Assembly: GCF_026626665.1 (NCBI RefSeq)
Contig: NZ_JAPNKE010000002.1
Span: forward strand, 1,229,204 to 1,293,203
Length of the DNA: 64,000 bases
Direction: 5' to 3'
DNA from: Nannocystis pusilla
Lineage (GTDB): Bacteria > Myxococcota_A > Polyangia > Nannocystales > Nannocystaceae
Every line of letters starts with the position of its first letter. Position 1 is the stretch's first letter. Shown piece by piece: positions 5,091 through 59,970 of this stretch. Under the pieces are notes generated by a model, which was given only the letters and a program-made list of their open reading frames with translations, made no database searches and was not told where the DNA came from. Both the position numbers and the translations under genes were made by a program.

Positions 5091-6512
5091 ATGCTCCGCG
5101 AGACATATCCCCTGTTCCTCGGCGGCCGCGCGGTGCAGGCCAACTTCGACCTGCCCGTGCTGGACAAGTTCTCCGGCGAGGAGGCGGCCCGCGTGGCCCA
5201 GGCCGACCCGGGCACGCTCGACGCGGCGATCGCCGCCGCCGCCGGGACGACGCGGGCGATGGCCGCGCTGCCGCCCTACGCCCGCCAGGCCGCGCTCGAG
5301 CACTGCGCGCGCCAATTCGAGGCGCGCGCGGCCGAGCTGGCGATGGTGCTGTGCATCGAGGCGGGCAAGCCGATCCGCGACGCCCGCGGCGAGGTGGGCC
5401 GCCTGATCGAGACGTTCAAGGCCGCGGCGGCCGAGGTGACGCGACCGGCCGGCGAGGTGCTGGCGATGGCGAGCAGCCCGCGCCTGCGAGGCTACCGCGG
5501 CCAGTGGAAGCGGGTGCCGATCGGCGCGTGCTCGCTGATCTCGCCGTTCAACTTCCCGCTCAACCTGGCGGCGCACAAGATCGCGCCGGCGATCGCCGCG
5601 GGCTGCCCGTTCGTGCTCAAGCCCGCCAGCGCGACGCCGATCTCGGCGCTGCTGATCGGCGAGGTGCTGGCCGAGGCGGACCTGCCCGAAGGGTCATGGT
5701 CGATCGTGCCGTGCCCGCGCGCCGGCGCCGACGCGCTGGCCAGCGACGACCGCCTCAAGCTGCTCAGCTTCACCGGCTCGCCGGCGGTCGGCTGGGCGAT
5801 GAAGGCCCGCGCCGGCAAGAAGAAGGTGGTGCTCGAGCTCGGCGGCAACGCGGCCTGCGTGGTCGACGAGACCGCCGACCTCGAGAAGGTGGTGCCGCGG
5901 CTCGTCACCGGGGCGTTCTACCAGTCGGGCCAGAGCTGCATCAGCGTGCAGCGGATCATCGCCCACACGTCGATCTACGCCGAGCTGCGCGAGCGCCTGG
6001 TCGCGGCCGTCCGCGAGCTGCGCGTCGGCGACCCGCGCGACGAGGACACGTTCATCGGGCCGATCATCTCCGAGAAGGAGGCGAGCCGGATCGCCGCGTG
6101 GATCGACGGCGCGGTCAAGGCCGGCGCGCGCCTGTTGTGCGGCGGCCAGCGCGACGGGGTGATGGTGGCGCCGACGCTGCTCGAGAACGTGCCGCGCGAC
6201 CAGCCGATCGCCGCCGAGGAGGCGTTCGGGCCGGTGGCGCTGCTGTCGGAGTTCGCCAGCTTCGACGAGGCGCTGTGGCAGGTCAACGACAGCAAGTTCG
6301 GCCTGCAGGCGGGCGTGTTCACCCGCGACATCGACCGCATGCACCAGGCGTGGGACTCGCTCGAGGTCGGCGGGGTGATCATCAACGACGTGCCGTCGTT
6401 CCGCGCCGACCCGATGCCCTACGGGGGGGTCAAGGACTCCGGTCTCGGTCGCGAGGGGCTCCGCTTCGCCATCGAGGACATGTCGGAGATCCGGATGCTC
6501 GTGGTGCGGTGA
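5091..6512 (+). CDS. NAD(P)-dependent aldehyde dehydrogenase family protein
   Basis: MLRETYPLFLGG...FTGS...ELGGNA...GQSCISVQRII: ALDH catalytic Cys and Glu motifs. GAGG RBS before the ATG at 5091. Upstream residues of listed ORF 4623..6512 are read-through. Confidence 0.85.
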   Translation: MLRETYPLFLGGRAVQANFDLPVLDKFSGEEAARVAQADPGTLDAAIAAAAGTTRAMAALPPYARQAALEHCARQFEARAAELAMVLCIEAGKPIRDARGEVGRLIETFKAAAAEVTRPAGEVLAMASSPRLRGYRGQWKRVPIGACSLISPFNFPLNLAAHKIAPAIAAGCPFVLKPASATPISALLIGEVLAEADLPEGSWSIVPCPRAGADALASDDRLKLLSFTGSPAVGWAMKARAGKKKVVLELGGNAACVVDETADLEKVVPRLVTGAFYQSGQSCISVQRIIAHTSIYAELRERLVAAVRELRVGDPRDEDTFIGPIISEKEASRIAAWIDGAVKAGARLLCGGQRDGVMVAPTLLENVPRDQPIAAEEAFGPVALLSEFASFDEALWQVNDSKFGLQAGVFTRDIDRMHQAWDSLEVGGVIINDVPSFRADPMPYGGVKDSGLGREGLRFAIEDMSEIRMLVVR

Positions 6513-41700: not shown

Positions 41701-41861
41701 CGACCGGGATCGGCTCCGACGTGCAGCGGCCGCTGGCGACGGTGGTGGTCGGCGGGCTGGTGTCGACGCTGCTCCTGACGCTGCTGGTGCTGCCGTGCGC
41801 GGCGTCGCTGGTGCGGCCGCGGCGGCGGGGTGGCGCGAGGGACATGTCTTCAGGGACATGA
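38766..41861 (+). CDS. CusA/CzcA-family heavy-metal efflux RND transporter
   Basis: 1031 aa, 12-TM RND architecture. Conserved N-terminus MLTRLPLLALRFRLAVLLAA...YPDVSDTQVVVIT. Confidence 0.9.
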   Translation: MLTRLPLLALRFRLAVLLAAAVWIAAGAYALATLKIEAYPDVSDTQVVVITMLPGYAAEEVEQLVTVPIERALGSVPHVIGRRSRTIFGLSVVELTFDDAIDDLVARQVVLEKLRDADLPPGVESSLGPMSTAIGEMFRYHLVSATLTTMQLRTLQDWVVAPRLLQSPGVADVITFGGEVRQYQVEVDPLALDKFHLSIDDIAAAIEENNENAGGGVIDNGQQSIAVRSVGQLQSAEDIASTLVGVDGGVPIFVRDVATVRIGPAPPTGIFGLDAAQGGVEGVVLMRRWENPSEVLRGIHARVDALNAGEELAGARIEGFYDRSELVGRTLRTVSRTLAEGVTIVVFVLVLLLASVRAALLTALMIPLSLLFAFVCMKLAGVPANLLSLGAIDFGIIVDGTLVMVEAIVHRLQQRPDPRAPAEPDEFAAAAREVTRPIVFSLAIIIAAYLPLFMLQRVERRLFTPMAFTVSTALLGALLLSLTLTPVLASYVFRRGVKSRPSRVMSAIAAGYAGLVRRLVRRARPVVAGAAVVTVAALVLVGGRVGTEFLPQLDEGSIWIRCNLPRGLSLFKSAEIASTIRGLVLQSPEVRQVASQTGRNDSGTDPYGPNRNEFLVGLQPYDTWPKGQVKADLVEALARRLRAAIPGATFSFTQPILDNATEAATGSSADLAIIVRGPDLGELRRLAVQSRAIVAGIAGAADTAIEQEAAQEQLRLRLRRADMARYGADVADVQQLVSLAIGGRPIATVYEGSRRFAAALRYIPEARASGEAIGRLMVMPHRGGRVPLAEVADIEVAEGATIIARRENQRQVTVRTNIRGRDQGSFVAEAQRQLQAALQLPPGYRLEWGGQFENLTRARRRLVVILPLTLGIILALLCFAFRSLRWALLVLACVPFSLLGGVLALWLRGIHLSVSAAVGMVSLFGVAVMSGVLLVESIRAVAAGGDAVEDTVQGATRAVRPLLLMILVALLGMVPAARATGIGSDVQRPLATVVVGGLVSTLLLTLLVLPCAASLVRPRRRGGARDMSSGT

Positions 41862-44665: not shown

Positions 44666-45607
44666 ATGACCGTCAGTAAGCCCCACCTCGTCGTCGTCGG
44701 CAGCGTCGCCATCGACTGGATCATCACGCCCCGCGCCGAGCGGCCCGAGAGCGTCGGCGGATCGGCGACCTTCTTCGCGATGGCGGCGTCGTACCTGTCC
44801 CAGGTGCGGCTGGTCGGCGTGGTCGGGCGCGACTTCCCCGACTACGCGGTGGCCGACCTCAAGGCGGCGGGCGTCGACACGTCCGGCCTCGAGATCGTGC
44901 AGGACGGGCTGACCTTCCGCTGGAAGGGCCAGTACCACGAGAACATGAACGACCGGACGACGCTCGAGACGCACCTCAACGTGTTCGAGAAGTTCCAGCC
45001 GCGCCTGCCGGACGAGTTCCGCGGCAGCGAGTTCCTGTTCCTGGCCAACATCCAGCCGCGCCTGCAGAGCGACGTGTTCGCGCAGATGCAGCGGCCCCGC
45101 CTGGTCGGCCTCGACACGATGAACCTGTGGATCTCGATCGCCAACGACGACCTCAAGGCGGTGCTGAAGAACGTGGACGTGCTGACCCTCAACGACGAGG
45201 AGGCCCGCCAGCTCAGCGGCGAGCACAACATCGTGAAGGCGGCCCGCGCGGTCCGGGCCCTCGGACCCCGCAACGTGGTGATCAAGCGCGGCGAGTACGG
45301 GGCGCTGCTGTTCGACGCGGACGGCGAGGTGTTCTCGGCGCCGGCGCTGCCGCTCGAAGAGGTGGTCGACCCGACGGGCGCCGGCGACAGCTTCGCGGGC
45401 GGCTTCATGGGCTACCTGGCCCGCCCAGGCGTGGAGACCAGCGGGGCCTCGCTGCGCACGGCCATGATCTACGGGTCGGTGATGGCTTCGTTCTGCGTCG
45501 AGGGGTTCTCGTACGACCGGCTGAAGGGGCTCGATGCGGCGACGATCCAGAAGCGCTTCGAGACGTTCGCTTCGCTGACGAACTTCGCTCGGGCCTCGTT
45601 GACCTGA
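44666..45607 (+). CDS. PfkB-family carbohydrate/nucleoside kinase
   Basis: Ribokinase-like fold: N-terminal VVVGSVAIDWI, C-terminal DPTGAGDSFAGGF (anion hole/GAGD) motif. Confidence 0.8.
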   Translation: MTVSKPHLVVVGSVAIDWIITPRAERPESVGGSATFFAMAASYLSQVRLVGVVGRDFPDYAVADLKAAGVDTSGLEIVQDGLTFRWKGQYHENMNDRTTLETHLNVFEKFQPRLPDEFRGSEFLFLANIQPRLQSDVFAQMQRPRLVGLDTMNLWISIANDDLKAVLKNVDVLTLNDEEARQLSGEHNIVKAARAVRALGPRNVVIKRGEYGALLFDADGEVFSAPALPLEEVVDPTGAGDSFAGGFMGYLARPGVETSGASLRTAMIYGSVMASFCVEGFSYDRLKGLDAATIQKRFETFASLTNFARASLT

Positions 45608-45639: not shown

Positions 45640-45890
45640 GCTAATTGCCGACTGCGCCTCGCGGGGGGTCCGGGGAAGGTCCGTCCGCGAGTTAACCGAC
45701 AGGATGGACGCTCGTTCCTCGCGCCCATCCTGTCTCTAATTCGCGGCCGGCCCTTCCCCGGACCCCTGGCACGGCTGCAGCCGTGAGGAGCCGCCGCGCC
45801 GAACCCGGCTCCATTCGGGAGCGGGGCCGAGAGGCGCTCGTCGGCGTCGATGCGACGGCCAGGGCTGGCCGTCGCATCGACGCTTCTCGC
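45640..45890. repeat. Structured repeat element copy 2 (core 45644..45787)
   Basis: Matches 15385..15528 in the same orientation. Inner stem GACAGGATGG / CCATCCTGTC is perfect in this copy. Confidence 0.7.
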
Positions 45891-46210
45891 GGGCTTTCGG
45901 CGCGGCTCGCTTCGTTGGTGGGTGCGCGAGCGAGGGGCCAGCGGCACGGTGGGCGAGTTCGAACCGACCGCGGCGCCGATCGTCACAGTGGTGACCGGTC
46001 GTCGACGAGGAGCATGCATCGCTCAGGTGACCATGGTTAATTTCGACGCGGTGAGAGCGAGCGAGTTACGCGCTGATCGGGTGAATCTCCTGTAGGAAAT
46101 CGACGCAGCAGAGTCGGCATTCGGAAGGGTAGACGCAGGACCTACGACCTCGGGCGCCTGAGACGCACTGTGTTGTGGGGACGCGGCGCCGCGCGTATCG
46201 TCACTCGAGC

Positions 46211-47158
46211 GATGGACATCACCCAGCTGCGCTACTTCGCGAGGTCGCCCGGCTCGGCAGCATGAGCGCCGCGGCGCGGGCGCTCAAGGTCAGCCAGCCC
46301 ACGCTGAGCGTCGCGGTGCGCCAGCTCGAGGAGTCGCTGGGAGCGACGCTGTTGCTGCGCCACCGCGGCGGGGTCAGCTTGACTGCTGGGGGCGCCGAAC
46401 TGCTGCGGCACGCGGAAGAGGTGTTCGCCGCGCTCGAACGGGCGACGGCGGCGGTCGCCGGGCTCGAACGCGACCTCGTCGGCAGCTACGTGCTTGGTTG
46501 TAACGAGTCGCTCGGAGCCTACTTTCTGCCGCGGTTCTTGCCGGGCTTCCTGCGCGAGGCCCCGCAGATCGCTCTGACGCTGCACAACGCGAACAGCGAC
46601 GACGTCCTGCGCGCCGTCGTCGAGCGCGAGATCCCCTTCGGGCTGGTCGTCAACCCGACGTCGCACCCGGACCTGGTGATCCTGCGGCTATGCCGCGACG
46701 CCGTCGATCTCTTCGTCGCCGCGCCCCCCGACGCGCCCGTCCCCGCGGGGGCGGCGCTGTACGGGCCTGCCGGCTGCTTCACCGCCGACCTCGCTGTCGC
46801 CGCGGCGCTGCTGCGCGACCGCCCGCTGATCGTCGCGGGGCGGGTCCATCAGTGCACCTGGCTGATAGACCAGCTCGCCGAGCACGACATGGTGCCGCGG
46901 CGACTGTTGTCCTGCGGCGACTTCGAGCTCGTCAAGTCGCTGGCGCTCGCGGGCGTCGGCCCGGCGATCTTGCCGCGCCGGATCGCCGCCTACCACCACG
47001 AGGGTCGGCTGCGCCGGCTGCACGCGGAGCTGCCGATCTTCCCCGACGACATCTCGCTGATCTACCGCGCCGACATGCCGAAGACCCGCGCCGCGATGTT
47101 CATCAAGGACGCGCTGGTCCGCTGCGGGCAGCAGATGCCGGACGTCGGCGTGCCGTGA
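46211..47158 (+). CDS. LysR-family transcriptional regulator, apparent 1-nt frameshift near 46240
   Basis: MDITQLRYF(A) then stop in frame. The shifted frame continues EVARLGSMSAAARALKVSQPTLSVAVRQLE (LysR HTH) and a substrate-binding domain. Confidence 0.75.
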   Translation, partial: DGHHPAALLREVARLGSMSAAARALKVSQPTLSVAVRQLEESLGATLLLRHRGGVSLTAGGAELLRHAEEVFAALERATAAVAGLERDLVGSYVLGCNESLGAYFLPRFLPGFLREAPQIALTLHNANSDDVLRAVVEREIPFGLVVNPTSHPDLVILRLCRDAVDLFVAAPPDAPVPAGAALYGPAGCFTADLAVAAALLRDRPLIVAGRVHQCTWLIDQLAEHDMVPRRLLSCGDFELVKSLALAGVGPAILPRRIAAYHHEGRLRRLHAELPIFPDDISLIYRADMPKTRAAMFIKDALVRCGQQMPDVGVP

Positions 47159-47217
47159 CGAACGATCCTGTGTCTCTTCGGACATGTTCCTACGTTCATG
47201 GTGAAAGTCTCTGAAGC

Positions 47218-48348
47218 TCAGCGCGGGCCCTCCGCCGCGCGGACCGCAGGGTGCGTACGCATCACGCGGCCCTGCGACGGGCTGAACCCGAGCGAACCGG
47301 CCAGCTCGGTGCGGGGATTCATGATGTTGTCTGCGTCGGTGTCATCGAGCGGATCGGCGAGGCCGTCCGCCTCGACCGCGTGGTAGAGCCCGAGGTAGTG
47401 CCCGAGCTCGTGCGCGAGCACGCGAGCCTGGGCGCCCAGGGGTATGTCGACTGGGCCGGCGCCTTCCGCGAAACAGTCGAGGCCCGGCATGAACACGCCG
47501 TCGGCAGGGCCGGCGCCGCCGGGGATCCTCGGCGTGAATCCGTTGACCGCGCGGGGCGGTCCGAAGACCGGGTCGTCGTAGAGCAGGCACCCGCCGAAGA
47601 CGACATCGACGGTCGTCTCGTCCTTGGGCGGAGCACCCGCGAACGCCGCCGCCAGCTCGGAGACGTCGCCGGCGTGGAAGCGGAGCGTCGCGGGGATTTC
47701 TTCGAGTTCGCGTGACTCGACGAGCCGCGGGGCGACGCCGCTCGCGGCGAGCTCCTGCTCGAGCAACGCGATCAACTCCCGTTGGCGGTCGTCGTCGCCG
47801 AACAGGATCGAGCTGTCCGCGACGTGGAAGCGCAGATCGATCGTCGCCCGCTCCGGCACCACCTCGACCGGCTGCGCGTCGATCCGCAGCGGCGGGCGAT
47901 CGTCCGGCGTGGAGAGCGGCGTGAGGGTCTGACAGTCGACGCGGGCGAAGCGGAGCGAGGCGCCGGTGTCCGGCGCGAAGCGGCCGGACTCGACGGGGAG
48001 GACGAACACGCCGGCCTCGACGGCGACCGAGGTGCGCAGCTCGCAGTCGCGGCAGAACGACCCCGCGCTGCGGCCGTCGATCACCGTCCGCCCCGCGCCG
48101 TCGACCGCCCCGCTGAGCTGGAAGCACACGCCGGGCGCGGTCGTGATGCGCAGCGCGAGGGCGGCGAGGGGCGCCTGCGCGGCGATCGTCACGCGACCGC
48201 TCTCGCCGTCGCCCTCGAACTGCGTGGCGCCGACCTCGAGCCAGGCCGACGCGAGCGCGCCGTCCTCGTCGACGGCGAGGTCCGCCTCGGCGCACCCGGC
48301 GAGCAGCGCCGCCAGCGTGACCTTCGCTAGTTCGACGGGCCGGCTCAT
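47218..48348 (-). CDS. Metzincin-like zinc metalloprotease lipoprotein
   Basis: MSRPVELAKVTLAALLAGC lipobox. HELGHYLGLYH (HExxHxxGxxH). Start ATG overlaps the upstream gene's stop (ATGA). The listed 855-aa ORF is a wrong-frame 5' extension. Confidence 0.7.
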   Translation of the reverse strand: MSRPVELAKVTLAALLAGCAEADLAVDEDGALASAWLEVGATQFEGDGESGRVTIAAQAPLAALALRITTAPGVCFQLSGAVDGAGRTVIDGRSAGSFCRDCELRTSVAVEAGVFVLPVESGRFAPDTGASLRFARVDCQTLTPLSTPDDRPPLRIDAQPVEVVPERATIDLRFHVADSSILFGDDDRQRELIALLEQELAASGVAPRLVESRELEEIPATLRFHAGDVSELAAAFAGAPPKDETTVDVVFGGCLLYDDPVFGPPRAVNGFTPRIPGGAGPADGVFMPGLDCFAEGAGPVDIPLGAQARVLAHELGHYLGLYHAVEADGLADPLDDTDADNIMNPRTELAGSLGFSPSQGRVMRTHPAVRAAEGPR

Positions 48349-50183
48349 CGCAGCTCCGAGGCGGGCACGAAGGCGCCGATCTGCTGCACCAGCCGCGCAT
48401 GGGTCTCCTCGCGCACGTGGGCCGCGAGCAGGCTGCGCGCCTCGGGTCGGGTGCGCGAGGCGGACCCGAGCCAGGCGATGATCGCCGACCGCTCCGTGAT
48501 CGACGTGCTGGCCGCGAGCTTGTCCGACATCAGCGCGACCGCGTCGCCCGTGGGAGGCCCGCGCAGGGCCTTCACGATCGCGGCGCCGACGGCCGGGTCG
48601 GTCTCCTCGCGGAGGCGGTCCAGGAGACGCGGGCCGGACTCGGCCGGATCGAGGCGACCGAGCGCCTCGACCGCGTGCTGCCGCGTCGTCGCGCTGTCGG
48701 CGTCGGCGTGCGTAGCGAGCACGTCGACGAACGCAGCGTCGCCGCTGTTGCCCATCGCGTCGAGGACGAGGTGGGTCTGCTCCGTGCCCGCGGCGCTCGC
48801 CAGCTCGCCCGTGAGCGAGTCTTGGACGTAGGTGCGGAGCTCGTCGTCGCCGCTGCGCCGGGCCATGCTGCCGAGGCCGAGCAAGCTGACGTTGGCGACC
48901 ATCGGGTCGGCCTCGCTCCTCGCCTGCGCGAGGAGCAGCTCGGCCGTGCTCCGCGTGGGCTCGCCGATGTCCGCCAGCGCCGAAGCGGCCCGGGCGCGAT
49001 CGACGGCGCGGAGGCGCGGGTCCACGAGGGCGTCCGTCAGCGCGTCGCGGGCGGCCTCGGTGCCCGACAGCTCGAGCGCGAGGAACAGCGCCGGGTGGAC
49101 CGCCTCGTCGAGGTCGCCGGCTCGCAGCGCGGCGATCAGGGGGCTCGCTGCCTCGGGGTGAGCCTTCAGCCACGCCGCCAGCGAGCGCGCCGCGGCGTAG
49201 CTCGCCTCCTCGGCCCCGCCGAGGCGAGAAAGGAAGGCCTGCAGCGCCTCCTCGTAGGAGAGCCGCGCGACACGCTCGTCGACGCGGACGTCGCGTTCGG
49301 CCGCGAGCGCGAAGGCGTCGCCGAAGTCGACCTCGTCCGCGTTCAGGGCGCGCACGGCGACGAAACGCCCGTCGTCGCGAGTCAGATGGAACTGCTGCAG
49401 CAGGTCGGCCTCGACCTCGCCCTGCACGAGGATCTGCACCCGCTCGAGGCCGGACGACGTCGTCAGCCAGTGCGGGCGCTCGCGGTCGAAGCTCGCGGTC
49501 GCCTCCGAGCCGACCATCACCACCGACACGCCGAACGTCGCGGCGCCCGTCTGCCCCTCGTACGCGGCCTTGCGCCGCTTGACGCGGACCGCCGGGCCGC
49601 GCGCGGCGGATGCCATCGCATAGCTCGCCTCGAACGCGCCGATGCCGTCCGACTGCGCCGCGCTCCAGCGCTTCGCGCCCTGCTTCGCCGGCAGCACGAA
49701 CTCGTGGGTCAGCAGCGTCGACTGGACGAGTTGACGCCGGCGCGGGTCCCAGTCGCGCGCGAAGCCGAAGCCGACGAAGCGGCACGACGCGTCGACGTCG
49801 ACGAAGAAGGGGTCGGTGAGCCGCCCCTCGACGCGCTCCTCCGGCAGGGTCAGCTCCTGGCTCTGCGACACGTCGGTGAGCGCGGCGCGGAGCCGCCAGC
49901 GATCGGCCGCGAGCTGCGCGTCGACCTGCCAGCTCAGCGTGGCCCGAAGGTGGTCCTCCTCCTCGTCGCGGACGTCTCGGACCGTGGACTCGAGCGTGAA
50001 CGCGGCCGTCTCGCCGGGGCTGAAGCGGCAGCGCGGGGCGGCCGAGGCCGCGGCCGAAGCCGCGGTCTCTCGGGTCGGTGTGCGGGGCTCGGTCGCCCGC
50101 AGCAGGCCGAGCGCGATCACCACGATCGAGCCCGCTGCGAGCGACAGCTTGAGGGAGCGGCCGGCCGTCGCCATGGCGCTCAC
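48345..50183 (-). CDS. Secreted HEAT/PBS-lyase-repeat protein
   Basis: GTG start overlapping the upstream stop (GTGA). Signal-anchor SLKLSLAAGSIVVIALGLL. C-terminal half made of ~30-aa helical repeats (…DPRLRAVDRARAASALADIG…, …DPAVGAAIVKALRG…). Confidence 0.65.
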   Translation of the reverse strand: MSAMATAGRSLKLSLAAGSIVVIALGLLRATEPRTPTRETAASAAASAAPRCRFSPGETAAFTLESTVRDVRDEEEDHLRATLSWQVDAQLAADRWRLRAALTDVSQSQELTLPEERVEGRLTDPFFVDVDASCRFVGFGFARDWDPRRRQLVQSTLLTHEFVLPAKQGAKRWSAAQSDGIGAFEASYAMASAARGPAVRVKRRKAAYEGQTGAATFGVSVVMVGSEATASFDRERPHWLTTSSGLERVQILVQGEVEADLLQQFHLTRDDGRFVAVRALNADEVDFGDAFALAAERDVRVDERVARLSYEEALQAFLSRLGGAEEASYAAARSLAAWLKAHPEAASPLIAALRAGDLDEAVHPALFLALELSGTEAARDALTDALVDPRLRAVDRARAASALADIGEPTRSTAELLLAQARSEADPMVANVSLLGLGSMARRSGDDELRTYVQDSLTGELASAAGTEQTHLVLDAMGNSGDAAFVDVLATHADADSATTRQHAVEALGRLDPAESGPRLLDRLREETDPAVGAAIVKALRGPPTGDAVALMSDKLAASTSITERSAIIAWLGSASRTRPEARSLLAAHVREETHARLVQQIGAFVPASELR

Positions 50184-52282
50184 TGCAGCTCCTCGGAGGC
50201 GTCCATCGCCAGGCTCAGGAGCCGCGTCGTGATCTCCGGCGAGGAGAAGCTGAAGAGGTGGACCTTCAGCGACTTGGCGAAGCGACGGAAGCCGACCTTG
50301 CCGACGATCGAGACGTCGCCGGACAGCGGCCGGAACGACATGTCCCAGGTCGCGCTGCCGCGGACCAGCAGCCGCTCTTCGTCGGTGAGCCCGAAGCCGA
50401 GCGTCGTGTCGAGCGGGAACCGGGTGGTGGCGAAGCGGAGGTCGGCCGCCACGCCCGCCTTCACCAGCTTCAGGTCGATGCCGCCCTCGATCTCGCCGGT
50501 CAGGCCGAAGTTCGGGGTGGTCACGCGGGTCAGCCGGCCGCAGGCGGCGAAGCTCTCGGCCGAGTTCAACAGCTCCTGGCAGGTGGCGTCGTCGGTCAGC
50601 GCCTCGAGGGTGTCCTCGACCTCGATGCCGATGGTGCCGCCGACGCCGATCTTGAAGCCGACGCGCACCGGACCGAAGCCGAAGCCGAGGTTGCCGATCG
50701 TGAAGGACTTGGCGGCGCTGAAGTCCTCGCTGTTGACGATCGTCGTCTCCTGCCGCTCGAGGCCGTAGAGGCGCTGGCCGAAGGCGTCGACGCCGATCTC
50801 GTAGGCGTTCTTGGTCGGGTCGACGGCGAGGGTGGCGGTGCCGAAGGCGCGCGCCAGCGTCAGGTCGAACTTGGCCCCGAGATTTCCATGGAGCGCGACC
50901 TCACCCTCGATCCGGCTCGACGCGCCGCTCAGGTCGAGGCGGTTCTGCGTCGACATCGTGCTGTCGATGCCGATCCGGTCGTTGCCGAGCGTGCGCTCGA
51001 ACTCCTTGTCGAAGCTCAGCGACGAGGCGCCCGAGGCCGGCGCGGTCTCGTGGACCAGCACCACCTCCAGCTCGCGGCAGTCGTCGACCGAACCCTCGCC
51101 GCGGTTGCCGTCCTGGGGGAACTCGGCGTTGAAGCAGCCGCGGACGACGAAGTCGCTCTGGTCCTCCCAGATGCCGCCCGCCGACACGGCCGCGAGCGCC
51201 TCGTCCGCGAGGAACAGCTCGTGCACGACGTCGTTGGCGGTGCCCGGCACGACCCGGTCGATGAGGGCCTCGGCGATCGTGTTGGCCGGGTCGGCAGGGT
51301 CGCGGATGGTGAGGGACAGCCGCGTGGTGCTGTCGGCCGCCGACTCGATCGTGTAGGACACGACCGCCTTGCCGGGCAGCGCGGAGAGAGCGGCCAGCCC
51401 GGCGGGGTCGAGGCCGAATTGCAGGTCCTCGACGATCGAGGGGACAGCCTCGACGAGCGACGGAGGGATCAGCGCCGGATCGACGGCGGAGGTGTAGGGG
51501 TCGCGTCCGTTGACGACGAAGCGCGACTGGACCACGAGGCTGGGCTCGAGGTCGGCGGGCCCGTCGACGCCGATGTTCTCGGTCGGCCGGTACGGCACGA
51601 CGGCCACCGACGAGGTCGCGCTGAGCGCGTAGCGGACGTCGATCAGTGTCCCGCCACCCTCGCTGGGAGTCGGTTGCAGGTCGATGGCGTGGACGCAGCC
51701 GAGCTTCGGGTCGGCGCCGTCCAGCGAGGCGCGGCAGCGCTGGTTGAGCTCGTCGCCGCGGTGCGCCTCGGTCAGCACGACGCTCGGGGCGTCGATGTCC
51801 GACTCGAGCTCGCTCGCGAGCTCCTCACCGCCGTTGAAGTCGACCTGGAGGTTCACCGGGGCGCCCTTCGCCGCGAGCGCGGCGCACAGCGAGGTCGGCC
51901 AGATGAAGCCCTCGACGATCTGCTCCTTCCCGTCGCCGGTCACCTCGACGTCGATCGCGCTCGAGCTGCACGCGAGCGGTTTCTCCGGGTCGCTCGGCTC
52001 GGCCTCGACGAAGGAGAAGGTGACGGCGACGTTGCGGGTGACGGGGTTCGCCGGGTCGGCGGCGTCTGCGGTGATGCCGAAGGTGATGGGGACCCGATTG
52101 TTGACATAGACCGGCTGCGAGAGGTCATAGCGGACGTCGAGGTGCGTCAATCGCACCTGAACCGCGGCGGGGATGCACTGTCCGTCGCGTTCGACGCTCC
52201 CCTCCTCACAAACGGCGGTGCCCTCCTGACAGGCGGCCGCGAACAAAGAAAAGGCAATGAGAGATGGTGTACGAAAATGCAT
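50180..52282 (-). CDS. Large hypothetical lipoprotein (700 aa)
   Basis: MHFRTPSLIAFSLFAAAC lipobox, unbiased composition, AT-richer 5' end. First gene of a three-gene translationally coupled operon. Confidence 0.65.
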   Translation of the reverse strand: MHFRTPSLIAFSLFAAACQEGTAVCEEGSVERDGQCIPAAVQVRLTHLDVRYDLSQPVYVNNRVPITFGITADAADPANPVTRNVAVTFSFVEAEPSDPEKPLACSSSAIDVEVTGDGKEQIVEGFIWPTSLCAALAAKGAPVNLQVDFNGGEELASELESDIDAPSVVLTEAHRGDELNQRCRASLDGADPKLGCVHAIDLQPTPSEGGGTLIDVRYALSATSSVAVVPYRPTENIGVDGPADLEPSLVVQSRFVVNGRDPYTSAVDPALIPPSLVEAVPSIVEDLQFGLDPAGLAALSALPGKAVVSYTIESAADSTTRLSLTIRDPADPANTIAEALIDRVVPGTANDVVHELFLADEALAAVSAGGIWEDQSDFVVRGCFNAEFPQDGNRGEGSVDDCRELEVVLVHETAPASGASSLSFDKEFERTLGNDRIGIDSTMSTQNRLDLSGASSRIEGEVALHGNLGAKFDLTLARAFGTATLAVDPTKNAYEIGVDAFGQRLYGLERQETTIVNSEDFSAAKSFTIGNLGFGFGPVRVGFKIGVGGTIGIEVEDTLEALTDDATCQELLNSAESFAACGRLTRVTTPNFGLTGEIEGGIDLKLVKAGVAADLRFATTRFPLDTTLGFGLTDEERLLVRGSATWDMSFRPLSGDVSIVGKVGFRRFAKSLKVHLFSFSSPEITTRLLSLAMDASEELQ

Positions 52283-52526
52283 ACGATTGTCCGGTGCAAG
52301 GCTGAGGGTGAAAAAGAGCCCGTGCGCGACCGCGATCGGCGCGCACCCATTGGAGGCGTCTTGCCCGTGTCATCGCCCTACCTGGCGCCGGTCGGTTATA
52401 GCCGCGGCGCCACACCGAGTCTCATAGGCCGCATGTATGGCTGCCATAGCGAGCTGCACCGCCGCCGGGCCGCTCCGCAGGCGGAGATTCGGGCGCGACG
52501 GCCGCGGAGCGCTGCATCCGGCCGAT

Positions 52527-53600
52527 TCACGCGCACGGCGACGAAGGCAAAGATCGGCAAATCCTCATGACCCCTCTCGGGCGCGACCCGGAAGACATGT
52601 CCCTTGGGACATGCCGTATCAGGCGCGCGCGAGGCGGCGGGGGCCGCAGGGCGGCGACGACGAGGGCGCGGAAGAACTGCGCGCCGGGGTCGGCGTCGGT
52701 GCGCGCGTGCCAGTGCAGGGCGAGCGGGAAGTCGACGATCTCGAGCGGGGCGGCGACGGTGCGCAGGGGTAGGCGACGGCTGACCTCGGCGGCGAAGCGG
52801 CGCGGGAGGCCGGTCATCCAGTCGGTGCGCGAGACGGCGACGGCGGCGGCCATGAAGTGCGGGACGGTGAGGACGACGCGGCGGCGCAGGCCGGCGCGGG
52901 CGAGGTTGTCGCGGGCGACGCGGTGGCCGTGGCCGCCCTCGCCGAGGATCTGCACGCCGACGTAGGGGGTGGCCTCGAAGCCGGCGCGGTCGAGGCGGCG
53001 GCCGACCTTGCGGTTGTCGCGGCGGACGACGAGGACGCCCTGTTCGCTGTAGAGCGGGGTCTGGCGCAGGCCGGGCGCAGTGACGGCGGCGGGGGCGAGG
53101 GCGAGGTCGACGAGGCCGGCGGCGAGGCCGTCGCTGGCGAGCAGCCGCTCGACGGTGATGACCTGCAAGGAGGCGCGCGGGAGCTGGCGCTCGAAGCGGG
53201 CGACGATCCGCGGCAGGTCGGAGACCTCCTGGTTGTCGGTGAGGGCGATGGAGAAGCGGCGGGTGGTGGTGGCAGGGTCGAACTCGCGGCCGGCGGCGAG
53301 GGCAGCCCGCAGCTCGTGCAGGCCGGCGGCGATCCGCGGCTGCAGCTGGAGCGCCACCGGGGTCGGCGCCAGGCCGCGGCCGCGGCGGACCACGAGTGGG
53401 TCGCCGACGACCTCGCGCAGCCGCGCGAGGGCGTTCGAGACCGCCGACTGGGTGACGTGCAGACGTCGCGCCGCCGCGGTCGCGCTGCCCTCGGTGAGCA
53501 CCGCGTCGAGGACGAGGAACAGGTTGAGGTCGATCGCCGCGAGGTCCACGAGTATCACCGCTGGTGATGGATGAGATGAGGAAGTATCACTGGTCGTCAT
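52527..53600 (-). CDS. LysR-family transcriptional regulator (3' end uncertain)
   Basis: LFLVLDAVLTEGSATAAARRLHVTQSAVSNALARLRE (HTH) plus LysR substrate-binding domain. The last ~35 aa (…PPPPRARLIRHVPRDMSSG…) read through a motif copy and are probably not real. Confidence 0.7.
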   Translation of the reverse strand: MTTSDTSSSHPSPAVILVDLAAIDLNLFLVLDAVLTEGSATAAARRLHVTQSAVSNALARLREVVGDPLVVRRGRGLAPTPVALQLQPRIAAGLHELRAALAAGREFDPATTTRRFSIALTDNQEVSDLPRIVARFERQLPRASLQVITVERLLASDGLAAGLVDLALAPAAVTAPGLRQTPLYSEQGVLVVRRDNRKVGRRLDRAGFEATPYVGVQILGEGGHGHRVARDNLARAGLRRRVVLTVPHFMAAAVAVSRTDWMTGLPRRFAAEVSRRLPLRTVAAPLEIVDFPLALHWHARTDADPGAQFFRALVVAALRPPPPRARLIRHVPRDMSSGSRPRGVMRICRSLPSSPCA

Positions 53601-53625: not shown

Positions 53626-54099
53626 ATGCAAACCGAGGAGGCGGAGATCCGTGGGCATGTGCTGGCGACCTTCGAGGTGTGGAGCCGCGGCGACGCGCGG
53701 GCCTTCGCGGCCCTGTTCGCGCCGGAGGTCGATTACGTGACGTTCGACGGCGGGCTGGCGCGCGGGCGGGCGGAGGTCGAGCGGGCCCACGCGGCGCTGT
53801 TCGCGACGGTGCTGCGCGGGACGAGCCTGCGCGGGGAGGTCACCGACGTGCGCACGATCGGCGAGGACGCGGCGGTGGCCCACGCGATCGGCGGGGCGGT
53901 GTGGCCGTGGCAGCGCGGGATCCCGGCCGACCGGCTGTCCCGGCAGACCTACGTGCTGGTCCGCGCCGGCGAGGGCTGGACGATCACCGCGTTTCACAAC
54001 ACGCGCGTGCGGCCGCTGCCGCGGCCGGAATCGCTCGCGTTCAAGCTGTTCGCGTGGTTCGTGCGGCTGCGGCTGCGGCTGCGCGGGGCGATCGGGTGA
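53626..54099 (+). CDS. SnoaL-like / NTF2-fold (DUF4440-type) protein
   Basis: 157 aa (WSRGDARAFAALFAPEVDYVTFDG...WTITAFHNT), divergent from the LysR gene. Confidence 0.55.
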   Translation: MQTEEAEIRGHVLATFEVWSRGDARAFAALFAPEVDYVTFDGGLARGRAEVERAHAALFATVLRGTSLRGEVTDVRTIGEDAAVAHAIGGAVWPWQRGIPADRLSRQTYVLVRAGEGWTITAFHNTRVRPLPRPESLAFKLFAWFVRLRLRLRGAIG

Positions 54100-54240: not shown

Positions 54241-57200
54241 GTGGTTTTCCCCGGCGGGCTACGCCACGGTATTTGCATGGGCGACGCAGGGACAGCGGAC
54301 CCGGCGAAGTACCGCACCACCGGACTGCTCAGTCAGAGCGCGGGCGCGGGCATCTATCGCGCGGTCCGGCTGGAGGACAACTGCGCGGTCGTCATCAAGA
54401 CGCTCGACCCACGGCTGCGCCCGGCGCGGGAGCTCGAGCGGTTGCGGGCGGAGTACGAGCTGGGGCGGTCGCTCGACCTCCCGGGGACGGTCAAGCCGAT
54501 CGCGCTGGACACGTACCGCGGCATGCCGGCGCTGGTGCTCGAGCACTTCGAGGGGACGTTCCTCGAGCAGCTGCTCACGGGGACGCCGCTGCCGCTCGAG
54601 CGCTTCCTGACGCTGGCGATCGGCATCGCCGGGGCGGTCGAGGAGCTCCACCGAAGCGACGTGGTCCACAAGGACCTCAAGCCCGACAACATCGTGGTCG
54701 ACCCGGTCCGCGGCGAGGTCAAGCTGGCCAACCTCGGCGTGGCGTCGCCGCAGCAGCGCGAGTCCGGGCTCGCGCCCACCGCGGGGATCCTGACCGGATC
54801 GCTGCCGTACATGTCGCCGGAGCAGACCGGGCGGATGAACCGCCCGCTCGACTTTCGCAGCGACCTCTACTCGCTGGGCGTGACGTTCTACCGCATGCTG
54901 ACCGGACGCCTCCCGTTCCGCGCCAGCGACCCGCTGGAATGGATCCACTGCCACGTGGCGCGCCGCGTCACGCCGCCGTCGGCGCTGCGCCCGTCGGTGC
55001 CGGAGGTGGTGTCGGCGATCGTGGTGAAGCTGCTGGCCAAGGTCGCGGAGGACCGCTACCAGAGCGCGCGGGGGCTCCGCCGCGATCTCGAGCGGTGCCT
55101 GGCGGCATGGCGCGCGCGCGGGCAGATCGAGCCGTTCCCGCTCGGCGAGGAGGACCTGGCGGAGCGGCCCCGCGTGCCGCTGCAGCTGTACGGGCGCGAG
55201 CGCGAGCTGGCGGCGCTGCGCGGCGCGTTCGAGGCGATGGTCGAGACCGGGGCGCCGGGGGTCGTGCGCGTGTCCGGCTATTCCGGGGTGGGCAAGTCGT
55301 CCCTGGTCCACAAGCTGCAGCGACCGATCGTCCAGGCCCACGGGTTCTTCCTCTCGGGCAAGTTCGATCAATACCAGCGCGGGATCCCCTACGCGACGAT
55401 CTCGCAGGCCTTCCGCGCGCTCGTCCGCGACATCCTCGCCGAGCCGGAGGAGCGGGTCACCGAGTGGCGCGGGCGCTTGACGGCGGCGCTCGGCCTGAAC
55501 GCGCGGCTCATCGTCGACATCATCCCCGAGCTGGCGCTCGTGATCGGCGAGCAGCCGCCGGTGCCCGAGCTGTCGGGGTCGGACGCGCAGAGCCGGTTCC
55601 ACCTGGTCTTTCGCCAATTCCTCGGGGTGTTCGCGGCGCGTGAGCACCCGGTGGCGCTGTTCCTCGACGACCTGCAATGGGTCGATCCGGCCAGTCTGGC
55701 GCTGCTCTCCCACCTGATCACGCACCCCGACATCCACTATTTCCTGTGGATCTGCGCGTACCGGGACAACGAGGTGAGCGCGGCGCATCCGTTGATGACG
55801 GCGCTCGCCCGGGTGCGCGCGGCGAACGTCGCGATGTGCGACATCTTCCTCACGCCGCTGTCCGAGGAGCACCTCGCGTCGCTCGTCACGGCCACGTTCG
55901 GCGGGCGTGTCCGCGACGCGGCGGCGCTCGCTCGCCTGATCCACGGCAAGACCGACGGCAACCCGTTCTTCGCGCTGCAGTTCTTGAACATGCTGCATCA
56001 GGAGGGGCTCATCGCGCTCGACCTGTCGACCGGGACGTGGGCGGGGGACATCCCGCGGATCCAGGCCAAGACGACGACGATCAACGTGGCCGAGCTGATG
56101 GTGCAGACGCTGCAGCGCCTGTCGCCGGGGGCGCGCGAGGCCCTCGAGCTGGCCGCGTGCCTCGGCGGGACCTCCGAGCTCGGCCTGCTCGCGGCGCTCG
56201 CCGACCGGCCGGAAGAGGAGGTGCGGCGCGACCTGGCGGCGGCGGTCCAGGCAGGGCTGGTGCTGCGCGACGGCGACGCCTACAAGTTCGCCCACGACCG
56301 CGTGCAGGAGGCGGCGTTCAGCCTGATCCCTGCGGCGGAGCGAGCCGCCGTCCACCTGCGGATCGGGCGGGCGCTGCTGGCTCGTCTGGGGCGCGAGGAG
56401 CTCGAGGCGCAGCTGTTCGAGGTCGCCGGTCATTTCGAAGAGGCCGCGCACCTGCTCGAAAGGACAGACGAGAAGGTCCGCGTCGCCGCGCTCCACCTGG
56501 CGGCCGGGCGTAAGGCCCAGGCGTCGACGGCCTACGACGCGGCCGTGCGCTACCACGCGGCCGGGAGCGCGCTGCTCGGCCCCGAGGCGTGGGACGAGCA
56601 GCACTCGCTGGCCTTCTCGCTGGGCTTCGCGCAGGCCGAGTGTGAATATTTGCGGTGCCGATTCGACGCGTCGGTGTCGCAGTTCGCGGCGCTGTTCGAG
56701 CGCGCGCGGACCCGCCGCGAGCGGGCGGAGATCCGGCGGGTCGAGGTCGATCTGTTCACCAGCCGACAGGAGCTGCACACGGCGGTCGAGCGCGGGATCG
56801 AGGGCCTGCGCTGGCTCGGCGTGGAGGTGTCGGCCCACCCGACGCGCGCGCAGGTGCACCGCGAGCTGCAGACGATCCAGGACGCGCTCGGCGAGCGGCA
56901 GATCGAAGACCTCGTCGACCTGCCGCCGCTCGTCGACCCCGACATGCGCGCGGCGCTGGGGATCCTCGCGGTGCTGTTCGCGCCGGCGCTCAACACCGAC
57001 CCCGAGCTGCCGTCCCTCTGCTATTGCCGCATGGTCGAGATCAGCCTGCGCCACGGCAACGGCGAGGCCTCGGCGCTGGGCTACGCGTACTTCGGGATGG
57101 TGCTCGGCCCGTCGTTCGGCCGCTATCGCGAGGGCTACCAATTCGGCAAGCTCGGGTACGACCTGGCGGAGCGGCTCGGGCTGGTGGCCTATCGCGCCAA

Positions 57201-59970
57201 GCTGCATTTCATCTTCGGCGACTGCGTCTGCTCGTGGACGCAGCACCTGCAGGGCGCGCTGCGCTACCTCGAGAGCGCGTTCCAGGCGGCGCTCCAGTCC
57301 GGCGACCTCACGTTCGCCTGCTACTGCTGCAATCATTACGTGGTCGACCTGCTGGTCCTCGGCGAGCCGCTCGAGCAGGTCGAGCGCGAGACGGAGCGCC
57401 GGCTGGAATTCACGCGCAACGCCGACTTCGCCGGCTCGTCGCAGGTGCTGATCGGGATCCAGCGGCTGGTCCGCCACCTCCTCGGGCGGACGCGCAGCCG
57501 CGCGAGCTTCCGCGACGACGCGGCGTACGAGGCGGAGGTGAATGCGTCGCCGTGGACGGTGGTGAAGTGCTGGTACTTCATCATGAAGCTGCAGGGCCTG
57601 TTCATCAGCGGCGATTACGCAGCGGCGCTGGCGGCCGGCGACGCGGCGGCGCCGCTGCTCTGGTGCTCGCTGGCGCATATCCAGGAGCCCGAGTACTGGT
57701 ATTATTACGCGCTGGCGCTGGCGGCCCACGTGTCGTCCGCCGCGCCGGTGCGGCAGCGCGAGGCGCTCGTGGTGCTGGCGCGCCACGAGGCGAAGCTGGC
57801 GGAGTGGGCGGCCTCGTGCCCGCAGAACTTCGGCCACAAGCACGCGCTGGTCTCGGCCGAGATCGCCCGCCTGGAGGGCCGCGAGCGCGACGCGCTGCAA
57901 TGCTACGACCGCGCGATCAGGGGGGCGCGCGAGCACGGCTTCGTGCAAAACCAGGCGATCGCCGACGAGCTGCTGGCCCGCTTCTACCGCGACCGCGGGC
58001 TCGAGATGCTGGCCGAGACGCACCTGCACGCGGCCCGCGCCTGCTACGTGAAGTGGGAGGCGCACGCCAAGGTCCGCCAGCTCGACGAGCAGGAGGAGGG
58101 CCTGTCCGACGGGCGGCCGGACGGCTGCGAGGCCAGCGACACGTTCACCGCGGAGCACGTCGATCTGCTGGCGGTGACCAAGGCGTCGCAGTCGATCTCG
58201 AGCGAGATCGTGCAGGAGAAGCTGCTGCGACGCTTGCTCAGCGTGGTGCTCGAGCAGAGCGGGGCCCGCACCGCGCACCTCATCGGGGTCCGGACCGGCG
58301 AGCTGACGCTCGAGGCCAGCGCCACGCTCGACGAGTCGGGGATGCACGCCGACCTGCGCCGACGCGGCCCCGAGGAGCTAGCGAGGCTGGTGCCGGCGTC
58401 GATCGTGCAATACGTGCAGCGCACCGGCGAGCGCGTGCTCCTCGACGACGCGCGCGCCGACCCGGGTCGGTTCGGCCTCGACGAGTACGTCGCGCAGGTC
58501 CAGCCGCGCTCGCTCCTGTGCTTCCCGATCCGCCGCCGCGGCACGGTGCAGGACGTCCTCTACCTCGAGAACAGCCTGGTCCCGAGCGCGTTCCGCAGCG
58601 AGCACTTGACGGTGCTCGAGCTGCTGGCCGCGCAGGCGGCCATCTCGCTCGAGAACGCGACGCTGCTGACGCAGGAGCAGGCGGCGCGGCAGGCGGCCGA
58701 GGCGGACCACCGGCGCGCGGCGTTCCTCGGCGACGCGAGCAAGCTGCTCGGCGAGTCGCTCGACTACGAGGAGGTGCTGCACCGTCTGGCCGACCTGTGC
58801 GTGGGCTCGTTCGCCGACTGGTGCGCGATCGATGTCGTCGAGGGCCAGGAGATCCGCCGCCGCACGTCGGCGCCGAGCAGCCCGGCGCAGGCGGCGGTGC
58901 TCGAGGAGATCCGGGCTCGCTATCCGCCGCGCCTGGACTCACCGCACCCGTCGTCGACGGCGATCCGCGCCGGCGCGCCGCTCCTCGTCGAGATGACCGA
59001 GGAGAACCTCGCGCGCTACTGCGTCGACGAGGGGCACGCCCGGCTGCTGCGCGAGCTCGGGGTCAGGACGGCGATCGTGGCGCCGCTGCCGACCGGGTCG
59101 CGGATCCTCGGCGCCATCACTCTCGGCTCGGGGCGGCCGGACTTTCACTACGCGGCCGCCGACCTCGATCTCTTGGTGGAGCTCGCCCGCCGCGCGGCCA
59201 TGGCGATCGACAACGCCCGGCTCTACCGCCAGGCCCAGGCCGCGCTGCGGCTGCGCGACGAGTTCCTGTCGGTCGCGTCGCACGAGCTGCGCACGCCGAT
59301 GACGTCGCTGACCCTCGCGCTGCAGACGATCGTCAAGCCGACCCCGACCGGCAAGCCGCTCGATCCGCAGATCACGAGCAAGCTGCTCGACCTGGCGATC
59401 CGTCAGTCTGGGCGGATGAACCGCCTGATCGGCGACCTCCTCGACGTGTCGCGCATCGAGACCTGGCAGCTCGCGCTGTCGCTCGGCGAGGTCGAGCTGA
59501 GCGGCCTCGTGCGCGAGGTCCTGGCCCGGTTCCAGCCCGATCTGGCCCGGGCCGGCAGCTCGGCGACGATCGAGGCCCCGGCGCCGGTGGTCGGACGCTG
59601 GGACCGTTCGCGCCTCGAGCAGGTCGTCTCCAACATCCTCTCGAACGCGGCCAAGTTCGGGGCCGGGGCGCCGATCGAGATCACGGTGAGGCGCCTGGGC
59701 GACGTGGCGCGGTTGACGATCCGCGACCACGGGCTCGGCATCGACCCGGACCGTTTGCCGAAGATCTTCGACCGCTTCGAGCGCGGCGTGTCGGCGCAGA
59801 ACTACGGCGGGCTGGGGCTGGGCCTCTACATCGCCCGCAAGATCGTCGAGGGCCACTGTGGTACGATCCGCGCCACGAGCACGCCGGGCGAGGGGACGAC
59901 GTTCATCGTCGAACTGCCGTGCTGCGCGAGCACGCCGCCGACGGCGACGGGCGGAGGTCCACGGTCATGA
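54241..59970 (+). CDS. Multidomain signalling protein: Ser/Thr kinase + AAA/NTPase (P-loop) + TPR-like + 2xGAF + histidine kinase (HisKA/HATPase_c)
   Basis: Kinase motifs (HKDLKPDNIV, SPEQ). P-loop GYSGVGKSS. GAF-like blocks. H-box SHELRTPMTSL. N/G1/G2 boxes (NAAKFG, DHGLGID, GGLGLGL). Alternative start at ATG 54277. Confidence 0.85.
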   Translation: MVFPGGLRHGICMGDAGTADPAKYRTTGLLSQSAGAGIYRAVRLEDNCAVVIKTLDPRLRPARELERLRAEYELGRSLDLPGTVKPIALDTYRGMPALVLEHFEGTFLEQLLTGTPLPLERFLTLAIGIAGAVEELHRSDVVHKDLKPDNIVVDPVRGEVKLANLGVASPQQRESGLAPTAGILTGSLPYMSPEQTGRMNRPLDFRSDLYSLGVTFYRMLTGRLPFRASDPLEWIHCHVARRVTPPSALRPSVPEVVSAIVVKLLAKVAEDRYQSARGLRRDLERCLAAWRARGQIEPFPLGEEDLAERPRVPLQLYGRERELAALRGAFEAMVETGAPGVVRVSGYSGVGKSSLVHKLQRPIVQAHGFFLSGKFDQYQRGIPYATISQAFRALVRDILAEPEERVTEWRGRLTAALGLNARLIVDIIPELALVIGEQPPVPELSGSDAQSRFHLVFRQFLGVFAAREHPVALFLDDLQWVDPASLALLSHLITHPDIHYFLWICAYRDNEVSAAHPLMTALARVRAANVAMCDIFLTPLSEEHLASLVTATFGGRVRDAAALARLIHGKTDGNPFFALQFLNMLHQEGLIALDLSTGTWAGDIPRIQAKTTTINVAELMVQTLQRLSPGAREALELAACLGGTSELGLLAALADRPEEEVRRDLAAAVQAGLVLRDGDAYKFAHDRVQEAAFSLIPAAERAAVHLRIGRALLARLGREELEAQLFEVAGHFEEAAHLLERTDEKVRVAALHLAAGRKAQASTAYDAAVRYHAAGSALLGPEAWDEQHSLAFSLGFAQAECEYLRCRFDASVSQFAALFERARTRRERAEIRRVEVDLFTSRQELHTAVERGIEGLRWLGVEVSAHPTRAQVHRELQTIQDALGERQIEDLVDLPPLVDPDMRAALGILAVLFAPALNTDPELPSLCYCRMVEISLRHGNGEASALGYAYFGMVLGPSFGRYREGYQFGKLGYDLAERLGLVAYRAKLHFIFGDCVCSWTQHLQGALRYLESAFQAALQSGDLTFACYCCNHYVVDLLVLGEPLEQVERETERRLEFTRNADFAGSSQVLIGIQRLVRHLLGRTRSRASFRDDAAYEAEVNASPWTVVKCWYFIMKLQGLFISGDYAAALAAGDAAAPLLWCSLAHIQEPEYWYYYALALAAHVSSAAPVRQREALVVLARHEAKLAEWAASCPQNFGHKHALVSAEIARLEGRERDALQCYDRAIRGAREHGFVQNQAIADELLARFYRDRGLEMLAETHLHAARACYVKWEAHAKVRQLDEQEEGLSDGRPDGCEASDTFTAEHVDLLAVTKASQSISSEIVQEKLLRRLLSVVLEQSGARTAHLIGVRTGELTLEASATLDESGMHADLRRRGPEELARLVPASIVQYVQRTGERVLLDDARADPGRFGLDEYVAQVQPRSLLCFPIRRRGTVQDVLYLENSLVPSAFRSEHLTVLELLAAQAAISLENATLLTQEQAARQAAEADHRRAAFLGDASKLLGESLDYEEVLHRLADLCVGSFADWCAIDVVEGQEIRRRTSAPSSPAQAAVLEEIRARYPPRLDSPHPSSTAIRAGAPLLVEMTEENLARYCVDEGHARLLRELGVRTAIVAPLPTGSRILGAITLGSGRPDFHYAAADLDLLVELARRAAMAIDNARLYRQAQAALRLRDEFLSVASHELRTPMTSLTLALQTIVKPTPTGKPLDPQITSKLLDLAIRQSGRMNRLIGDLLDVSRIETWQLALSLGEVELSGLVREVLARFQPDLARAGSSATIEAPAPVVGRWDRSRLEQVVSNILSNAAKFGAGAPIEITVRRLGDVARLTIRDHGLGIDPDRLPKIFDRFERGVSAQNYGGLGLGLYIARKIVEGHCGTIRATSTPGEGTTFIVELPCCASTPPTATGGGPRS

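Follow-up and report, generated by a model that had tools for sequence, protein, structure and literature searches.

Here we analyse a 64-kb window of the genome of Nannocystis pusilla (64,000 nucleotides, positions 1,229,204 to 1,293,203 of contig NZ_JAPNKE010000002.1; coordinates below are those of the window unless a locus is named), which carries on its minus strand three adjoining genes, here called A, B and C. The proteins A, B and C appear to make up a conserved module of the cell envelope that is translated together and has the pair A and B at its core. Tentatively, and with somewhat less than even confidence, we read the trio as a two-chain, membrane-tethered lipid-binding module that resembles the animal large lipid transfer proteins (LLTPs), together with a dedicated processing protease. 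With greater reserve, we also consider it possible that B and the C-terminal domain of A share true homology with the animal LLTP module (vitellogenin/apoB/MTP), in a bacterial version divided over two chains and provided with its own processing protease.

Three overlapping genes for exported proteins

Gene A (50180–52282) is an open reading frame (ORF) for a 700-aa lipoprotein, gene B (48345–50183) is an ORF for a 612-aa protein that resembles the N-terminal part of LLTPs, and gene C (47218–48348) is an ORF for a 376-aa M43-like metzincin lipoprotein. The first-pass annotation of this DNA had reported 4-nt overlaps at both junctions of the trio, and the ORF coordinates confirm them. Specifically, the A/B junction reads GTGA, in which the GTG start of B overlaps the stop codon of A, while the B/C junction reads ATGA, in which the ATG of C overlaps the stop codon of B. 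B has an alternative ATG three codons after its GTG start, and the sequence GGAGCTGC precedes both the A/B and the B/C junction. The trio had been proposed to be a translationally coupled operon whose products are exported, and this is upheld, as gene order, strand and junctions are conserved beyond chance. Neither a sigma-70-like promoter nor an intrinsic terminator was detected around the trio. The 59-bp spacer (47159–47217) between C and the convergent LysR gene downstream has a GC content of 49%, compared with 73% for the genome, and no intrinsic terminator is predicted in it.

The predicted fold of B resembles the N-terminal part of LLTPs

In the LLTP module, the N-sheet wraps a central helix, and the A-sheet and the C-sheet are held by a clamp of 17 helices in two layers (PMC6717300, PMC12214520). 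MTP is laid out in the same terms, as a barrel, a 17-helix clamp and two sheets (PMC6717300).

The AlphaFold2 model of B has a mean predicted local distance difference test (pLDDT) score of 84. In the model, 11 strands (residues 59–269) enclose a central helix (residues 147–158), forming a predicted β-barrel (residues 52–290; 49314–50030, minus strand) that would be the counterpart of the LLTP N-sheet. Directly after the barrel follows an α-helical solenoid (residues 303–612; 48348–49277, minus strand), the putative counterpart of the LLTP helical clamp, with ~18 helices as compared with ~17 helices in two layers in LLTPs. The sizes of the two domains mirror the described layout of MTP.

Pfam assigns to B matches to HEAT_2 and to Vitellogenin_N (PF01347), the latter with 25.2 bits (gathering score 24) and with residues 369–512 of B aligned to profile positions 364–524. 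PF01347 recurs in 17 of the 27 members of the B family, and remote relatives of B match it with 35.9 and 45.1 bits. In structure comparisons with the model of B, honey-bee vitellogenin scores 17.5 over 404 residues, lamprey lipovitellin 17.5 over 430 residues, ApoB-100 β/α1 15.9 over 255 residues, and the MTP large subunit 14.3 over 291 residues, with sequence identities of just 6–12% between B and LLTPs in the structural alignments. Generic HEAT proteins also match the model with high Z, and residues 464–572 of B resemble PBS-type HEAT repeats. However, among solved proteins only LLTPs align both domains of B at once (404–430 residues), whereas PBS-lyase-type HEAT proteins (HEAT_2/HEAT_PBS, alphaRep) are devoid of the N-terminal barrel of B and align with at most ~224–270 of its residues. 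The label 'HEAT-repeat scaffold', which B had been given earlier, under-describes the protein, as the AlphaFold2 model and Pfam point to the two-domain architecture of the LLTP N-terminal part. Judged by the model, the match of B to LLTPs at the level of fold is well supported; membership of its two domains in the LLTP superfamily is supported, and common ancestry of B and LLTPs is likely.

An alignment of 27 homologues reveals a hydrophobic segment near the N-terminus of B (residues 10–28; 50100–50156, minus strand). This stretch is 16–20 residues long and leads into an Ala/Pro-rich linker that extends to Cys52; the first 47 residues have pLDDT values below 50. No lipobox or clear AXA site is present in the N-termini of the 27 aligned homologues, and the segment, by its sequence, looks like a signal anchor.

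A combines Ig-like domains with predicted amphipathic sheets

Protein A begins with MHFRTPSLIAFSLFAAAC. Its signal peptide and lipobox (LFAAAC; 52229–52282, minus strand) end at Cys18, the predicted lipidation site, which is invariant in 37 homologues. A is 100% identical to OV079_05690 (658 aa), for which NCBI places the start 42 codons later, at Val43 (~52156). Because the NCBI start removes both the signal peptide and the invariant Cys18, the longer ORF, with its start at 52282, is probably the right one.

The AlphaFold2 model of A (pLDDT 72.6) contains Ig-like β-sandwich domains (residues 29–411, minus strand) and a C-terminal β domain (residues 421–692; 50207–51022, minus strand). The C-terminal domain is predicted to consist of 14 long amphipathic strands, several of them 24–27 residues in length, in which polar and hydrophobic residues alternate strictly. 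It contains a Gly-rich motif, GNLGFGFGPVRVGF (50633–50698, minus strand), and an invariant pair of cysteines, Cys568 and Cys581.

A has no match in Pfam or NCBIfam. In a Foldseek search with A, MTP ranks third and fifth (E 2e-5, probability 1.00, ~300 columns), in matches that are not assigned to one domain of A and that stand amid generic multi-Ig proteins. The N-terminal part of A matches complement MG, Fn3 and integrin-type domains, while the C-terminal domain weakly resembles the sheets of MTP and lipovitellin. On the strength of the model, it is plausible that the C-terminal domain of A is the counterpart of the LLTP A-sheet and C-sheet.

The A–B pair is the conserved core of the module

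By a pattern scan in which each species was represented by one genome, we obtained 36 loci with a relative of B. Their hosts within Myxococcota belong to Polyangia, Nannocystaceae, Myxococcaceae, Archangium, Hyalangium and Sandaracinaceae, and those outside Myxococcota are Rheinheimera, Pseudoalteromonas and other Gammaproteobacteria. The order and strand of A, B and C are kept in all 36 loci, wherever the contig permits. The first-pass annotation had suggested synteny as a check of the operon and unlinked orthologues as its refutation; linkage holds in 36 of 36 loci, and this test therefore favours the operon. B and C overlap or abut (gap of −4, −1 or +1 nt) in 33 of 34 loci, among them those of Pseudoalteromonas, with a GC content of 40%. 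The exception is a locus from a metagenome-assembled genome (L034, 8001–9852), in which the frame of B breaks after about residue 395 and a 279-nt gap precedes C, probably owing to a frameshift or an assembly error. A and B overlap by 4 or 1 nt in 23 of 35 loci, and the remaining A/B junctions have gaps of 3–36 nt that bear Shine-Dalgarno-like sequences.

A full HMMER scan with the profile of A retrieved only 191 clusters among 1.84 billion representatives, and the conserved part of the family corresponds to profile positions 300–700. We inspected the contigs of eight remote members of the A family, two of which were too short to judge. In five of the six informative cases (L037/38, L039, L040, L042 and L044), a B-like gene is adjacent to the A-like gene. 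Specifically, the two genes overlap by 4 nt in L037/38 (B-like protein with hhalign E 3e-31) and in L039 (B-like protein with PF01347), whereas in L040 the B-like gene is the divergent neighbour of a gene for a ricin-lectin-fused A-like protein. Searches with hmmsearch found no C-like gene within ~5 kb of the pair in L037/38, L039 and L044, while full-length C-like genes are present downstream of the pair in L040 and upstream of it in L042. In L045, the A-like gene has neither a B-like nor a C-like neighbour. The pairing of A and B thus survives both a change of gene order and the loss of the protease, suggesting that A and B function jointly, with C as an accessory. Taken together, these sequence comparisons argue that the conserved core of the module is A and B, not the protease.

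Further genes accompany the module in some lineages. Secreted FG-GAP/UnbV_ASPIC-type proteins are encoded next to the remote A-like/B-like pairs of L037 (8901–10601), L038 (7087–8787) and L040 (9294–11069), and L046, the closest relative, has an FG-GAP-like fragment (2–187) upstream of A; these proteins may be a fourth, lineage-specific partner. Directly downstream of the pair of L039, on the opposite strand, is a gene for prolipoprotein diacylglyceryl transferase (Lgt; 5258–6064). In seven of nine gammaproteobacterial loci (L019–L022, L025, L026 and L035), the trio is accompanied by a conserved protein of 465–532 aa (60–93% identity; for example L025, 3859–5457, minus strand), which is present in two copies in Rheinheimera. 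Pfam recognises in this protein only a C-terminal α/β-hydrolase domain, not its N-terminus, and leaves a reading by eye as a SARP-type regulator unconfirmed. In a PADLOC search for known defence systems, B had a single marginal match while A and C had none, and we rejected a reading of the trio as such a system.

C is a predicted metzincin lipoprotein

Protein C begins with MSRPVELAKVTLAALLAGC and is 100% identical to OV079_05680. It has a lipobox, LLAGC, whose Cys19 is invariant in 31 sequences and is predicted to be lipidated. The motif HELGHYLGLYH, noticed in the first reading of the sequence, is confirmed at residues 313–323 (47380–47412, minus strand) and corresponds to the zinc motif HExxHxxGxxH. 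Residues H313, E314, G316, H317, G320, H323 and M343 are invariant in the 31 sequences. The segment DNIMNP (47314–47331, minus strand), in which N341 and M343 are invariant, is presumably the Met-turn, an assignment that we make from general knowledge of metzincins.

The best solved relative of C is ulilysin (E 3e-4), with an alignment that runs from the 'PGG' strand (G-f-t-p-r-i-P-G-G-a-g) through the zinc motif. The family profiles give scores below their cut-offs: C matches Peptidase_M43 (PF05572) with 21.8 bits (cut-off 23), Reprolysin_4 with 21.6 bits (cut-off 22) and TIGR03952 with 24.7 bits (cut-off 208), and some orthologues of C have a precomputed match to PF05572. Residues 20–250 form a family-specific domain of ~230 aa with conserved cysteines. 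C thus shares with the M43 metzincins (ulilysin, pappalysins, cytophagalysin; PF05572) the HExxHxxGxxH motif and an invariant downstream Met, but differs from them in its sub-threshold scores, its lipobox, its own N-terminal domain, and in being always encoded with an A/B pair. These features suggest that C is a distant, active-looking M43-like metzincin.

Proposed mechanism and alternative explanations

We propose that A, through its lipid anchor, and B, through its N-terminal segment, would be tethered proteins made in fixed proportion. A would be made just before B, and its C-terminal ~280 residues of amphipathic strands would supply in trans the LLTP sheets that B is missing. The two chains could then form an LLTP-like cavity for binding or shuttling lipids, or hydrophobic cargo of another kind, which the lipid anchor of A and the hydrophobic segment of B would hold in the periplasm or on the cell surface. 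C would most likely mature or release the A–B complex, for instance by cutting flexible tethers, in a role analogous to the processing of vitellogenin into multi-chain lipovitellin. The lamprey lipovitellin module itself consists of separate chains and provides a precedent for proteolytic processing (PMC12214520). Transcription would probably be controlled by LysR1, the LysR-type regulator encoded downstream of C, via a dyad at 52436–52448 (see below).

Several observations weigh against an LLTP-like module. The sequence signal that links B to LLTPs is confined to its helical part, this part is nearer to PBS-type HEAT repeats (E 1e-27 to 1e-38), and narrow (A1) and broad (A4) profile searches of PDB sequences retrieved HEAT and alphaRep proteins only, with no LLTP; convergence on a barrel-plus-solenoid arrangement is therefore possible. 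In LLTPs the A-sheet and C-sheet, which line the lipid cavity, are on the same polypeptide, whereas B ends at residue 612, immediately behind the helical domain and at the very point from which LLTPs run on into these sheets. For A, a profile search of the PDB gave no sequence match, and a permissive Pfam scan of 37 members found no LLTP-sheet family such as DUF1943. Furthermore, Pfam on the nine longest matches found no A–B fusion protein among the 191 family clusters, in which the fusions that do exist are to ricin-B lectin, FGE-sulfatase and MopE-like motifs, and the remote A-like gene of L045 is without a B neighbour.

The same observations could be accommodated by an envelope operon with a different role altogether, for instance in adhesion or in the binding of matrix or glycans, in which the likeness of B to LLTPs is convergent and A is a multi-Ig surface lipoprotein. 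The strongest sequence likeness of B is indeed to PBS-type HEAT proteins and to no solved LLTP, the N-terminal part of A resembles domains of extracellular proteins of the MG, Fn3 and integrin types, and the genes next to the pair at remote loci encode extracellular proteins of the FG-GAP/ASPIC and lectin types. We nevertheless consider this explanation unlikely, in view of Vitellogenin_N matches that lie well over the gathering score, up to 45 bits, of the alignment of both B domains at once with solved LLTPs only, and of the fact that A and B each independently match MTP. To a surface or periplasmic proteolytic machine, with C as the effector and B and A as scaffold or substrate recruiters, we likewise assign a low probability. 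It would agree with the retention of all catalytic residues in C, with the coupling of B and C, which is the most conserved junction (33 of 34 loci), with the common use of HEAT solenoids as scaffolds and the high-Z matches of generic HEAT proteins to B, and with the recurrence of C-like genes in the remote loci L040 and L042. It leaves unexplained, however, the barrel-plus-clamp architecture of B and the large amphipathic sheet domain of A, and A-like/B-like pairs occur with no C-like gene within ~5 kb in L037/38, L039 and L044. A protease-centred complex that needs a HEAT-repeat scaffold, as first suggested for the trio, is at odds with these remote branches, in which the A-like and B-like genes remain neighbours but the metzincin is missing (L037/38, L039, L044) or has changed position (L040, L042), and in which the protease therefore appears accessory.

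It is also quite improbable that A is a β protein that inserts into membranes, whether as a barrel or channel of the outer membrane or as a pore-forming toxin that C activates, with B as its periplasmic chaperone, plug or immunity partner. Outer-membrane barrels have a C-terminal aromatic β-signal and girdles rich in Tyr and Trp. The C-terminal domain of A has neither, as residues 421–700 contain 0.7% Tyr and 0.4% Trp (1.1% in sum) and the protein ends in ...DASEELQ; we infer that the domain forms open amphipathic sheets, not a membrane barrel.

Comparison with known lipid transfer systems

LLTPs have been described as animal machinery that packages and moves bulk lipid, as in yolk, LDL/VLDL and lipophorin. 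The trio resembles them in the barrel of B, which is predicted to surround a central helix and to be followed by a two-layer clamp of similar size, and in the long amphipathic sheets predicted for A. In contrast to animal LLTPs, the trio is bacterial, its module is split over two genes with the sheet-bearing gene first, its proteins are predicted to be lipid-anchored or membrane-tethered, A carries extra Ig-like domains, and a dedicated M43 protease takes the place of furin-type processing or of a PDI partner. On the LLTP-like reading, the trio would be an LLTP-type module that is split, lipid-anchored and bacterial and has a dedicated metzincin, with A as a candidate member of the LLTP superfamily.

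The first-pass annotation held that the trio is not a known named system, and our searches agree. Database names of its members are generic ('hypothetical', 'HEAT repeat' and 'M43 family zinc metalloprotease'), and the literature that we searched, with incomplete coverage, contains no paper on the trio and nothing relevant on bacterial homologues of vitellogenin or other LLTPs. If B and the C-terminal domain of A are truly homologous to the LLTP module, the LLTP fold did not originate in animals, and myxobacteria and some marine gammaproteobacteria would have a lipoprotein-particle-like carrier of lipids or other hydrophobic cargo in the envelope or the extracellular space. The trio would make testable both the origin of the LLTP fold and the existence of a diderm lipid-carrier system that differs in kind from Lol, Mla, Lpt and AsmA-like bridges, and it is found in culturable Myxococcus fulvus, Corallococcus, Archangium, Pseudoalteromonas rhizosphaerae and Rheinheimera.

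A conserved LysR gene and a candidate operator

Two LysR genes flank the trio. The upstream one (52527–53600) lies on the same strand as the trio; its ORF ends at 52527 and it is divergent from a SnoaL/SgcJ-like gene (53626–54099), as had been described. This gene is absent from all related loci, including that of the closest relative, L046 (A 88%, B 84% and C 80% identical), so that the proposed link between it and the trio does not hold, and we rejected it as the cognate regulator.

The downstream gene, LysR1 (46175–47158, start approximate), lies on the plus strand, convergent with C, and encodes a protein with the Pfam domains HTH_1 and LysR_substrate. LysR1 has counterparts of 81–90% identity at the same position in L005, L007, L008, L014 and L046, and LysR1-like genes (61–63% identity) are located upstream of A, in divergent orientation, in L003, L004, L006 and L011.

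Upstream of A, a promoter-proximal region (52308–52457, minus strand) is conserved, with 84% nucleotide identity to L046, and the similarity to L046 ends after ~150 bp. This region includes a T-N11-A dyad, TATGGCAGCCATA (52436–52448), a putative LysR-type operator located 165 nt upstream of A; no other site in the window matches the dyad with one mismatch or fewer. The dyad is present within 450 nt upstream of A in six of nine loci with a LysR1-like neighbour and in none of the 26 loci without one (Fisher p 5e-5, kinship among loci ignored). The co-occurrence of motif and regulator makes it probable that LysR1 is the cognate regulator of the trio, acting via this predicted operator. LysR-type operons classically have a T-N11-A operator and a regulator gene that is usually divergent. 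The trio follows this pattern in having the dyad and, in L003, L004, L006 and L011, a divergent LysR1-like gene, but departs from it in the window, where the conserved LysR gene is convergent and downstream of C and a second LysR gene lies upstream.

The same promoter-proximal stretch contains an inverted repeat, TGGCGCCG-N14-CGGCGCCA (52383–52412), which is centred on TATAAC between the dyad and the start of A and is kept in L046. The intergenic region 52283–52526 had been described as a promoter region of notably low GC bounded by a copy of a motif, and both features are weak. Its GC content is the same as in gene A (0.693 in each), only 0.03 under the window mean of 0.726, while the real dip (0.62) spans 52100–52400 and takes in the 5′ end of A; repeat and k-mer searches found no motif copy at its border.

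Other features of the window

The intergenic region between a gene for a PfkB-family kinase (44666–45607) and the LysR gene at 46175 contains an inverted repeat (45656–45775) whose 39-nt arms are 82% complementary and are separated by 42 nt. On the plus strand, a gene at 38766–41861 encodes a full-length RND transporter of the AcrB/AcrD/AcrF family. Also on the plus strand, a gene at 54241–59970 encodes a 1909-aa hybrid signalling protein that comprises a Ser/Thr kinase, an AAA_16 ATPase, two to three GAF domains, and a histidine kinase part with HisKA and HATPase_c domains.

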